Below are positions 11,901 to 14,900 of a stretch of 61,412 bases of DNA, piece by piece. Position numbers: made by a program. How positions within the stretch are numbered: the stretch's first letter is position 1; each line of letters begins with the position of its first letter. Origin of the DNA: a virus. Lineage: Duplodnaviria; Heunggongvirae; Uroviricota; Caudoviricetes. The stretch lies in IMG/VR virus record IMGVR_UViG_2563366956_000010, one strand, 5' to 3'.

Positions 11901-14900
11901 ATATCAATATGTTGGGCCATTATACATTCACGTTGCCAGAGGATATTTTAAAAGGGGAACTGAGAGCTCTAAATTTAAATATAAACAACGAATTATCTCC
12001 TTAACGTACGTTTTCGTTCCATTGGCCCTCAAACCCCGATCTTTACGAGGTTGACGTAATAGTCATGGGGTAAGTTTGTCATGGTGATAGTTCCCTTAAA
12101 GGTTAAGGATACTCACCACCGTCTGGTTCCAATCATTGGGTGGTGAGACGTACAGGGTTGGAACTACCGGTCACCATGGAATCCGGCGAGTCTTACGACT
12201 CCCCCGCACGCCCCACCATAATTTGGGTGTAGCAGTGCTTTACGCATAAAAAAACCGCTAACGCGGTATGCGCCATGATGATTATCGGGGTTCCAATCCC
12301 GACCGTAGATTTTGCTACGGCTCGGAAAGTGTCCACCAATGGCGCATTCATGTCAATACGGCGGGATTTTAACAGAGACAACCACATAGCGTGGGTTTAT
12401 TGGTAGGCAGAAACAAAAAAACCGCCCTATTGAGGACGGTTCTTTCGTGCTGATCGGATTCGCGGTCCTTTCAGCATAACGTCGTTGTATAAACAACCAC
12501 GCAAGCACAAGCAGCAAGTTAATTTTACCCAAAAGGTAATAATAGTCCACTATTATGCTTCAAAAAATTGTGGTTCTTGTTGTGCCTGCAAACTCACAGA
12601 TTGTGGGTAGGTTACTGATTTTGTGAAAATAAACGAGTTTTTTCGTTTAATTTCTTTCCTATTACTAATCTTAAAATAATCGTAAAATACCTGTGGACCT
12701 TCCCGCCGATTCGCACCCGGGCACCGACTTTAGGGGAGGATTCTCCGTTGCCGTACATGCAAGCACAAGCAGCCGTGCTTGCTCTCGCGTTGTTTTCGTC
12801 GGTGGGGATGCCGTGAAACGGCCTGTAAGGGCCATACAATGAAAAAATACTGTATGTGTATTTTTATCGTTGTTACTGGGGCTTTGTTTACGCCACATGG
12901 GGAGGGTTGGAAGATTACTGATAACGCTCTGAATGTGACGATAAACATTAGCAGCAAGTAGCGATTAGGCCCCTTCGGGGGCCTTTTTTATGGTTGAATT
13001 TAAACGCTGGAGCGCATTAAGCCTTTCAGAACTGCTTCACGTACCCATTCTGGCCTGGTGGATAGCAGGGCAAATAAGCGACCAGCTTTCAGCCGTTTGA
13101 GGTCGGTTAGACGAGTTTTCAGTAACCGTGTATATTGTTGCTCGGACATAACAAATTCCCCTTGTTGTGTCGCGACGGCCAACAGTTGGCGCTGGAGGCC
13201 GTCACCTTCTCTTACTTCTGGTTGTATTGAGCCTTGAGTAACTCAAAAGATTTTGTCAGCACTTCTTTCAATGACATATCCATTGAGCTGGCGAACGTTT
13301 TGTACTCGCGTTTAAATTCAGGGTCGACGTTAAACGCCATTTGTGCCCCACCTGATTTGGTTCTGGTTGGCGTTTCAGTCGGGTCGAAAACCTGCGGTTG
13401 TTCGATCGATGGCGGTACGCCTTTGCTGTTCTTCTTTGGTGGTTTTGATGGTCCGGCCATGTGTATCCCCTCTTATATAAATCTATAAAACTATAATTAT
13501 ATATTACGCGGCAGTAGTCAGAGCCTCAAGCTGGTTGATAATCCCCTGAATAACGTCGTCTGCCTTTTTGCGTGGCGCAACGTATGAGCATTCAATGAGG
13601 CTTAAGCCCTTATCCTGAGCTTTGCTCAGAGCTGGCTTGTGGGGAATGTACTTATCGACAACAAAGTATGGCGTATTAGCTAGGTACTCTTGGGCTTCAA
13701 TGTAGTCGGCTTCGTTTTCAGCCGCGCCTGAGAACACCATGCAAATTTTCTTGATTGGCACACCCTTTTTAACGATGCCGTGAGCTGTGTTAACGGTGGT
13801 TTCTAGGTCATCGGTAGAGAATCTGGTTGGCAAAATAACCATATCCAGAAATTCAGAGAGCTTCGGTACTGATTCAGATGCGTAGGCACCGCCATCGACG
13901 ATAACCAGGTCGTATACTTCTGATTCGATGATTTTCTGGACTTGTGATGGCGTGCCGCACGGCTGCGCCGCGATTGCAGGTTCGATATTGTTGGCCATTC
14001 TGCGTTGTACCCAACGCGTTACCGTTCCGTTAAGCACATCCATATCGATCAGGCATACATTCCAGCCGGCCTTTGCATAAGCAACTGCTAAAGCACGGGC
14101 AATTGTTGATTTGGTTACGCCGCCTTTTCCGTTGAAAATACCTACAGAGATAGTCATTTGTCGAGACTCCATGTGTTTGGTTATATAATTCTATAAATCT
14201 ATATTTATAGAACGAGGTAAGCATAACCAACTTTTTGGCGGATGAAAAGCGTTTTATATAATTATATAAATCTATAATCATGTAAGCGGGCGTTAGCCCG
14301 CTTTCAGTCAGAGGTCAGCTATCGTTGATATCAGTTGATTTGCTAGCTGTCGCTGTTTACGTGAGAGGGTGAGAGCAGCTTCTGAGCGGTCGCTAAGAGG
14401 GGTGTTTTCATCAAGAATCATGAGGCATACAGAAATAATAGCCCTGTTATATGCCATCAATGGCTGGCACAGCTTCGATATCGCTGGCACATCGTATTGT
14501 AAGGCCGTTTTGAGGCAGACTTTTTGTTCTGATGCCAGATGAAGGATAGATTCTATCCAGTCGATATCTTTCTCATTATCAATGATTTGGCATAACATAC
14601 ACTCAATCGCTATGTTCAACGCTTGGATTTCGATTCCAGCAGTGATCAGAGTTTCGTTTTTATTGGCTGTATGTAATTCCATGCGTAGCCTCTTTTATAC
14701 TTTTACATGTTGTCAAAACCACAAAATGTGGTTTTTTTGAGCGTAGAAATGCACGGCTTTCGCCGTGCTGTGTATCATAACCAGTTGACAACACTAACTA
14801 CGCGGCCAAGAACTTTATAACGCTTAAATTCCTCGTTATTCAGATGCTTAGTGTTCATTTCAGCATCCCTTTCGGTTGACAGCATAACAGCATTGTCACC

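Follow-up and report, generated by a model that had tools for sequence, protein, structure and literature searches.

Tandem 8-bp arrays common to the partition operon and to scattered gene starts of an Escherichia coli phage-plasmid are candidate binding sites for a ParG-like protein

The stretch of DNA considered here (IMG/VR virus record IMGVR_UViG_2563366956_000010; 61,412 nucleotides, referred to below as the window) is a myovirus phage-plasmid of Escherichia coli of about 47 kb together with transposon cargo. To our knowledge, the coordination of plasmid maintenance with phage gene expression in phage-plasmids is largely unknown outside P1 and N15. In this element, arrays of a single 8-bp unit are found at the parF-parG partition operon and at five other places on the replicon, and the same layout, with differing repeat sequences, is found in many related phage-plasmids, suggesting that the partition protein probably co-regulates phage genes. 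The interpretation that we favour, with moderate confidence, is that the arrays are binding sites for the ribbon-helix-helix (RHH) protein predicted to be encoded by the parG-like gene, and that they make up a ParG regulon or a multi-site centromere.

All eight sites consist of 8-bp units in tandem, with three to five units per array and the palindromic consensus TTATATAA. Variants of the unit include TTATAGAT/ATCTATAA, which are reverse complements of each other, and TTATAGAA/TTCTATAA. Four units per array is the usual number; the distal site upstream of parF has three, and the site between parF and parG has four (five on a looser count). A preliminary description of this DNA had listed eight AT-rich sites, one of them (at 18008) an inverted repeat. 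All eight sites are present at the coordinates given, and the inverted repeat, AATCTATAA-N8-TTATAGATT, corresponds to two units in opposite orientations. When four consecutive units were scored against TTATATAA (maximum 32), scores of 26–28 were obtained at exactly eight positions (13473, 14181, 14254, 18009, 19226, 23826, 24961 and 57819), and the best score elsewhere in the window was 21. Peak scores were 19–23 in 200 dinucleotide shuffles and 20–24 in 200 shuffles within 100-bp blocks, which preserve local AT-richness, so the enrichment withstood a search with shuffled controls (maximum 24, against 26–28 observed). Exact copies of TTATATAA occur 14 times in the window, against 1.7 expected, and 11 of these 14 lie inside arrays. 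The window contains no further array, the sole near-miss being a two-unit remnant in the tape-measure gene (42871–42886), and no Rfam family was found for the arrays or for the leader of the promoter cassette described below. All 20 arrays of three annotated genomes lie at gene boundaries. The proportion of arrays with the start of an open reading frame (ORF) at most 70 nt away (56%, against 51% for random positions) does not discriminate, because the definition of a start used was too permissive.

Three of the eight arrays belong to the partition operon, which lies on the minus strand. The parF-like gene (13504–14157; alternative start at 14172) encodes a small Walker-type ParA ATPase of 217 amino acids, and the parG-like gene (13212–13460), which starts 43 bp after parF, encodes a predicted centromere-binding protein of 82 amino acids with a disordered N-terminal tail and an RHH domain. 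A four-unit array (13473–13504) fills the gap between the stop codon of parF and the Shine-Dalgarno (SD) sequence of parG. Upstream of parF, a proximal array of four units (14181–14212) and a distal array of three units (14254–14277) flank a predicted promoter (14220–14248), the hexamers of which were read from the sequence: a -35 box TTTTCA (14248–14243), a 17-bp spacer and a -10 box TATGCT (14225–14220). The order on the minus strand is thus the terminator hairpin of the upstream gene, the distal array, 5 bp, the -35 box, 17 bp, the -10 box, 7 bp, the proximal array, which lies between the -10 hexamer and the ribosome-binding site, and, directly after it, CCAAACACATGGAGTCTCGACAAATG, the start of parF. 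The distal array is likely to be a centromere or an upstream operator. The order of distal array, -35 box, promoter, proximal array and ribosome-binding site was recognized by eye in 13 of 13 further viral-contig lineages, often with better hexamers (TTGCAC-17-TATACT in locus L023, for example), and L023 and L042 likewise have an array between parF and parG, made up in each case of the lineage's own units. Directly downstream of parG there is an ORF of about 49 amino acids (MSEQQYTRLLK...; 13000–13149, minus strand) that has tblastn matches at the same position in a Serratia plasmid (49% identity) and a Vibrio phage (40%); it is unannotated in the reference plasmid and may be a third gene of the par operon.

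The covariation of the units with the par operator across relatives is, in our view, the decisive evidence. In Salmonella pAR-0407-1 (ParG 89% identical), all eight positions are again occupied by arrays, in which the TTATATAA consensus has been kept and the individual units have turned over. Serratia pJSRIV006_2, with a ParG that is 40% identical and a siphovirus-type tail on the same repA/par/cI/early backbone, has arrays built of TTTAAATA-type units. Of its six arrays, two lie at parF, and three of the remaining four belong to cassettes of the same design as those of the window. In Vibrio phage 10N.237.312.C11_PE002A, a P2-like phage-plasmid, the units at parF are TTTCGTGC/GCACGAAA, and gene boundaries carry another six arrays, made up of GNANGAAA units. 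A scan of IMG/VR with ParF yielded 80 loci (designated by L numbers), in 78 of which a ParG homologue follows ParF. For these loci, a position weight matrix (PWM) of the unit was derived from the 150 bp upstream of parF only and used to scan at most 10 kb on each side of par, with three-unit arrays retained if they exceeded the maximum of 30 local shuffles. Further arrays were found in 30 of the 31 loci with clear par arrays, with one to six in each and 100 in total. The units of these lineages (AGATATAA, ATTCTTTA, AGCGTTAT, TAACGAAT, CTTTAATT, TAATTCGC, TTAGCGAA and ATAGCTAA; checked by eye) differ, and in each genome the scattered arrays match the genome's own par operator. Cross-scans were dominated by the diagonal: the E. 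coli PWM detects eight arrays in E. coli and none in Serratia, Vibrio or L023, and the Vibrio PWM detects eight in Vibrio and none in most of the others, with one weak cluster each in L035 and L037. Lineage-specific units that match their own par operator indicate that, in each genome, the par operator and the scattered sites are recognized through one and the same element-encoded specificity. The notion, present from the outset, of one site family common to the partition operon and to other transcription units is thus upheld, and the family is specific to the element, since its units covary with the par operator. In a scan of genome contigs, the matches listed were almost exclusively generic Walker-A matches, with one real relative (L087), and the scan is therefore uninformative as to non-phage plasmids. 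Five GC-richer viral contigs with distant ParF and ParG proteins (L050, L055, L059, L060 and L072) are more densely populated than the 40- to 50-kb elements, with 6–10 arrays in a span of 20 kb; their units include TTAGCGAA and ATAGCTAA. Four of these contigs are about 110–118 kb long, and L072 is a 14-kb fragment.

The five scattered arrays all lie on the plus strand, and three of them, at 18009, 24961 and 57819, form the 5' end of a 127-nt repeat family consisting of the array, 7 bp, TTTACA-17-TATGGT, a leader of about 50 nt, the SD sequence AAACCGGAGA and ATG. In the first copy (18009–18128; array 18009–18040), a predicted sigma-70 promoter, TTTACA (18048–18053), 17 bp and TATGGT (18071–18076), is followed by a hairpin in the 5' untranslated region (5'UTR), the SD sequence and the ATG (18126) of a DUF3560 gene. 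The second copy (24961–25080; array 24961–24992; promoter 25000–25028) has the conserved leader and an ATG at 25078. The third (57819–57939; array 57819–57850; promoter at about 57858–57886, with the -10 box TAAGGT) follows the terminator of a HigB/HigA-like pair and starts a gene of 126 amino acids (ATG 57937). This cassette has been kept in Salmonella, Serratia and L019, with lineage-specific units and a promoter spacing of 17 bp (TTGCAA-17-TAATAT in Serratia) that is constant in the four lineages. A TAGG...CCTA palindrome in the promoter spacer has arms that change symmetrically between lineages, and the outer pairs of the leader hairpin change between AU and GC in a compensatory manner, with no broken pairs, a covariation that supports transcription from the cassette promoter. 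These elements, the spacer palindrome and leader hairpin, are found at 18041–18128, 24993–25080 and 57851–57939 in the window, and at 16937–17026, 19279–19365 and 26228–26322 in L003. The copies within one genome are 87–96% identical and differ between genomes, and the genes behind them are unrelated and differ between lineages; the cassette would thus seem to behave as a portable expression module evolving in concert.

The other two scattered arrays are arranged differently. The four-unit array at 19226–19257 follows a hairpin at the end of the DUF3560 gene and lies directly upstream of the SD sequence of a gene encoding a winged helix-turn-helix (wHTH) protein of 93 amino acids (19271–19552). 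It has a start context, AAGGAnnCCTCGACAATG, in common with parF, as is also the case in Serratia (27673–27730), which suggests that this array is a copy of the proximal half of the par operator. A promoter inside it was considered and rejected, as neither a promoter scan nor reading of the sequence identified an acceptable pair of -35 and -10 hexamers leaving room for the SD sequence. The four-unit array at 23826–23857 lies upstream of a long hairpin, a tRNA-Met and an MT-A70 methyltransferase gene, about 140 nt from the tRNA-Met region. Spacing is regular: the end of the array is 5–7 bp from the -35 box at parF and in all three cassettes, and 1–10 nt from the SD sequence at parG, parF and 19271. 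The preliminary description placed the scattered copies at phage promoters; this holds for three of them, located just upstream of a conserved sigma-70 promoter, but not for the arrays at 19226 and 13473, which abut a ribosome-binding site with no recognizable promoter, or for that at 23826, about 140 nt upstream of the tRNA. The hairpin between the 23826 array and the tRNA-Met (23996–24071) is near-perfect and 83 nt long (23903–23985), with 34-nt arms that are 85% complementary; no Rfam family matches it, and its role could be that of a processing element, of a terminator or of a small RNA. In the Salmonella relative (L004, 27956–28000), the array homologous to that at 19226 and the start context CCTCGACATG precede a gene for a DGQHR-domain protein that is absent from E. 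coli, in which the wHTH gene follows the array; arrays thus coincide with swap points for accessory genes.

The protein most likely to bind these arrays is the ParG-like protein. Its relatives were recovered by an exhaustive HMMER search (a word-indexed search retrieved only those at least 80% identical) and are proteins of about 75–90 amino acids sharing a K/P-rich N-terminal motif and a C-terminal domain, LNFKV-x2-EF-x-REFK-x-FA...SM-x-ELL-x3-FELYK. Among 50 homologues, 19 match the Pfam family RHH_10, 12 match Antitox_RHH, four match 56B_RHH and one matches ParG (PF09274; E = 0.018), and on these matches the family is an RHH family. Profile searches gave weak, in-register matches to the RHH proteins SvtR (2kel, E = 0.11) and TP228 ParG (1p94, E = 0.69), and hhalign also aligned TP228 ParG in register over the RHH domain. 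In the AlphaFold2 model of the monomer, residues 1–39 are disordered and helices are predicted at 47–59 and 62–79, as expected for an RHH monomer, although the beta-strand is not represented in a model of the monomer; a Foldseek search with this model (predicted local distance difference test score of 65) returned one meaningless match only. As for the predicted ATPase, ParF matches the Pfam families CbiA/ParA/MipZ, and the best full-length matches of its family profile in the PDB are to TP228 ParA/ParF (5u1g and 4dzz, E ~1e-11). As in type Ib systems, this ATPase is small (217 amino acids) and has no N-terminal DNA-binding domain, a small RHH protein with a predicted flexible N-terminal tail is encoded directly downstream of it, and arrays of short repeats, predicted to be centromere and operator, lie beside the operon. 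Common ParG beta-strand sequences go with common units: QMAFNV/QMSFNV with TTATATAA, PLNFRV with AGCGTTAT and QLLLRL with AGATATAA. In view of the weak matches to ParG, we call the 82-amino acid protein ParG-like in its predicted function and fold, and not a proven member of the ParG family (PF09274).

Several findings weigh against binding of the arrays by this protein, or against the regulatory role proposed for them. Single-sequence searches of Pfam and the PDB with the 82-amino acid protein yielded no match, and its resemblance to TP228 ParG is weak, with an hhalign probability of 56% and an E of 0.69 in the PDB profile search. The correspondence between beta-strand and unit is not one-to-one, as PLNFKV is found with both GCACGAAA and TAACGAAT, and AT-only units cross-match among AT-only lineages, in which specificity rests on fewer positions. 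For arrays located only upstream of a -35 box, the sign of the effect is unpredictable, as omega activates at partial occupancy (PMC4627068). No integrated or par-less relative was found among complete E. coli genomes, in which 219 of 222 places were on plasmids, and the natural knock-out control is consequently missing.

If the arrays are bound by the ParG-like protein, as homology and co-occurrence suggest, its dimers would coat 24–40 bp cooperatively, with one dimer per 8-bp unit. The distal, proximal and parF-parG arrays together would form the centromere and the autoregulatory operator, like parH and OF of TP228; as the arrays bracket the parF promoter, with the proximal one over the transcript start, autorepression would be expected, as at OF. 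Copies of the two halves of this operator would have been placed at five other transcription units. The half upstream of the -35 box would have become part of the cassette driving the DUF3560 gene, the operon at 25078 and the gene at 57937, and the half immediately before the ribosome-binding site would precede the wHTH gene; a further array, assigned to neither half, is located some 140 nt ahead of the tRNA-Met/methyltransferase region. ParG, at its autoregulated level, would then set the expression of the units with scattered arrays together with that of parFG. The effect would most likely be repression or a transcriptional roadblock in the plasmid-prophage state, a roadblock being the simplest idea where an array lies between two cistrons (parF/parG, DUF3560/wHTH and the Vibrio late operon). 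A contribution of the scattered arrays to the partition complex is likely too, given that the par arrays are short by comparison with the eight or more boxes needed by TP228.

This last point leads to the best of the other explanations, according to which the scattered arrays are extra centromere sites only, assembling a multi-site partition complex with no meaningful effect on transcription. The par-proximal arrays have three to five units, whereas efficient centromere activity in TP228 requires at least eight boxes (PMC3130281), and the extra arrays would add about 20 units; N15 provides a precedent for scattered centromere sites (PMC7205306), and the Vibrio arrays inside the late operon have no promoters nearby. 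Placement is too regular for this explanation, however, as the arrays lie 5–7 bp from a -35 box or at most 10 nt from an SD sequence, and all at gene boundaries; the array also travels within a promoter/5'UTR cassette that has been kept in four lineages, and in TP228, pSM19035 and RK2 one set of sites is used for partition as well as repression. A purely centromeric role is, therefore, unlikely.

It is very improbable that another protein of the element binds the arrays. The candidates would be the wHTH protein encoded at 19271, the product of a 124-amino acid ORF (14308–14682) and that of the small ORF downstream of parG. The wHTH gene lies directly behind one array and matches a MarR-type PHROG, and Serratia and Vibrio retain the small ORF that follows parG. 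However, winged-helix and cI-type proteins bind palindromes rather than 8-bp tandem arrays in either orientation, and ACCAC-N5-GTGGT palindromes, described below, probably account for the cI-like repressor. Moreover, of the proteins of the par/immunity region, the window shares only ParF and ParG with the most distant array-bearing contigs, L050 and L060; ParB/Srx-like proteins encoded far from par are also shared with them. The wHTH protein was rejected as the binder because it has no homologue in eight relatives that all have scattered arrays (L003, L006, L023, L028, L035, L042, L050 and L060). Of the two binders originally suggested, the wHTH protein must thus be set aside, and the ParG-like protein stands as the best candidate, belonging by its relatives to an RHH family, being encoded directly after a ParF-type ATPase and having a TP228 analogue with the same 8-bp period.

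Generic AT-rich promoter DNA (UP elements, -10-like hexamers, or sites for H-NS, Fis or IHF), with no dedicated binder encoded by the element, would account for the composition of the arrays (88–96% AT, with abundant TATAAT-like hexamers) and for the location of three of them exactly at the position of an UP element (about -38 to -70). Shuffles preserving local composition never reach the observed scores, though; a strict 8-bp register and a unit consensus are kept despite the turnover of units, and homologous positions elsewhere have GC-containing units (AGCGTTAT, GCACGAAA and TAATTCGC) matching their own par operator. The shuffles and the lineage-specific units led us to reject promoter composition, UP elements and host nucleoid proteins as the explanation, which we consider scarcely credible. 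Equally remote is the idea that the arrays are mainly recombination junctions for the exchange of gene cassettes, alike through gene conversion: near-identical cassettes within each genome (three per genome, 87–96% identical, differing between genomes) and differing downstream genes (DGQHR in Salmonella, wHTH in E. coli) would fit, but the identity of the unit with that of the par operator in every lineage and the 8-bp tandem structure would be left unexplained, and such exchange is compatible with ParG binding rather than opposed to it.

The closest known counterpart of the partition operon is that of TP228, in which ParG coats ACTC boxes with 4-bp AT spacers, at an 8-bp period, in either orientation and with one dimer per box; the operator OF and the centromere parH lie upstream of parFG (PMC3130281). 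The two systems have in common a small Walker ParA followed by a small RHH protein with a flexible N-terminal tail (here predicted), and arrays with an 8-bp period and direct or inverted units, two of them upstream of parF. They differ in that the sequence similarity to ParG is marginal, the units are TTATATAA here rather than ACTC plus an AT spacer, and the arrays have three to five units rather than 8 and 12; in addition, the promoter here lies between two arrays, an extra array is present between parF and parG, and five further arrays are found elsewhere on the replicon. We know of no scattered arrays comparable to these described for TP228.

Partition proteins that double as regulators are known from other plasmids. 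Omega, the RHH centromere-binding protein that works with delta in the Inc18 plasmid pSM19035, binds arrays overlapping the delta, omega and copS promoters (PMC3074150); the units are in either orientation, with one dimer per unit (PMC3074150; PMC4627068), and partial occupancy by omega leads to activation, full occupancy to repression (PMC4627068). One RHH protein thus couples partition with gene regulation in pSM19035, and arrays are present here at parF, three cassette promoters and further gene starts. The omega unit is, however, a 7-bp heptad, WATCACW, unlike the 8-bp TTATATAA of this element, and pSM19035 is a Firmicutes plasmid with three sites, all at maintenance genes, whereas the arrays described here include some at phage-borne genes and in a repeated promoter cassette. 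KorB of the IncP-1 plasmid RK2 is a partition protein that acts as a global regulator via multiple operators across the replicon (PMC11790492); it differs in being a ParB-family CTPase that forms a sliding clamp from single palindromic OB sites and silences at long range, with no RHH protein, arrays or phage involved.

The analogy with N15 drawn in the preliminary description is apt, in that N15 is likewise a phage-plasmid with partition-protein sites scattered through the phage genome. The sop system of N15 reportedly influences late gene expression, judging from the title of a 2008 article by Ravin, Rech and Lane cited in PMC11652158. Four scattered SopB centromere sites, IR1–4, are present in this linear phage-plasmid (PMC7205306). 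The scattering is all that the two have in common: the N15 system is of type Ia, with a large helix-turn-helix ParB (SopB) that spreads along DNA from single 16-bp palindromes, whereas this element has a predicted type Ib 82-amino acid RHH protein and tandem 8-bp arrays at fixed positions at promoters and ribosome-binding sites. The design is, therefore, established in its parts: partition-protein sites doubling as operators in omega and KorB, and scattered centromeres on a phage-plasmid in N15. What appears to be new, and has good support from the sequences, is a ParG-type version with 8-bp arrays over phage genomes, with at least ten unit-specificity lineages and with part of the arrays packaged in a portable promoter cassette; no description of ParG-type arrays scattered over phage-plasmids was found in the searchable literature.

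A 6.5-kb stretch of the backbone carrying these arrays is 100% identical to the E. coli plasmid pMB9698_3 (47.7 kb) and 99% identical to vB_YpM_41, an isolated Yersinia phage with a genome deposited as complete, and 74 of 5426 complete E. coli genomes, including that of ATCC 25922, carry the backbone, nearly always as a plasmid. Its genes include repA, the HigB/HigA-like pair, a cI-like repressor, an early operon, lysis genes, a terminase and a contractile tail. A second family of sites, the palindrome ACCAC-N5-GTGGT, has 10 matches, against 2 expected, with three copies in the cI/early intergenic region and single copies immediately upstream of repA, downstream of cI and in the C4/isrK immunity region (12380–12396, 14717–14733, 15468–15484, 15550–15566, 15571–15587 and 54632–54648). 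The cI-like repressor (14775–15431, minus strand) probably has its operators here, and repA would then be under its control as well. Rfam matches above the gathering score were obtained for a C4 antisense RNA, the immunity RNA of P1/P7 type (12136–12223, minus strand), the Hfq-binding isrK RNA (12248–12321, minus strand) and ryfA RNA (12693–12989, plus strand). These matches point to a P1-like immI (c4/ant) module beside a Rha/ORF6N gene (60030–61172, minus strand), from which a transposon now separates it.

The cargo consists of Tn3-family insertions (1–12037, 52448–53455 and 61318–61412) bounded by Tn3-family inverted repeats (1–40, 219–256, 6057–6096, 11999–12037, 52448–52487 and 61321–61360). 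It includes a microcin B17-like operon (453–5361, minus strand) encoding McbB, SagB/SagD-type maturases, an ABC ATPase and a pentapeptide-repeat immunity protein, a Sll1717-family P-loop ATPase that resembles anti-phage proteins (6169–8271, minus strand), a Tn3 transposase (8996–12004), a resolvase and blaTEM (52595–53455, minus strand).

Phage-plasmids are increasingly recognized as carriers of resistance and toxin genes, and this one carries blaTEM and a microcin B17-like operon. If the interpretation favoured here is correct, a regulon or a multi-site centromere addressed by the partition protein would constitute a simple and general device for coupling plasmid maintenance to phage gene expression, and the relatives would provide a natural series of orthogonal RHH/operator pairs, with at least ten unit sequences, useful for studies of RHH specificity and for synthetic circuits. 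A more far-reaching version, tentative and in its entirety doubtful, would make the RHH partition protein the master regulator of a broad, previously unrecognized group of phage-plasmids from Enterobacterales, Vibrio and marine and other environmental viral contigs. In the plasmid state, accessory and late genes would be kept at a set level by arrays serving as operators and roadblocks, both at promoters and in the gaps between cistrons; as arrays multiplied in the course of lytic replication, ParG would be titrated, which would link copy number and partition directly to the choice between lysis and lysogeny; and the array-promoter-5'UTR cassette would be a ParG-addressable module co-evolving with ParG.

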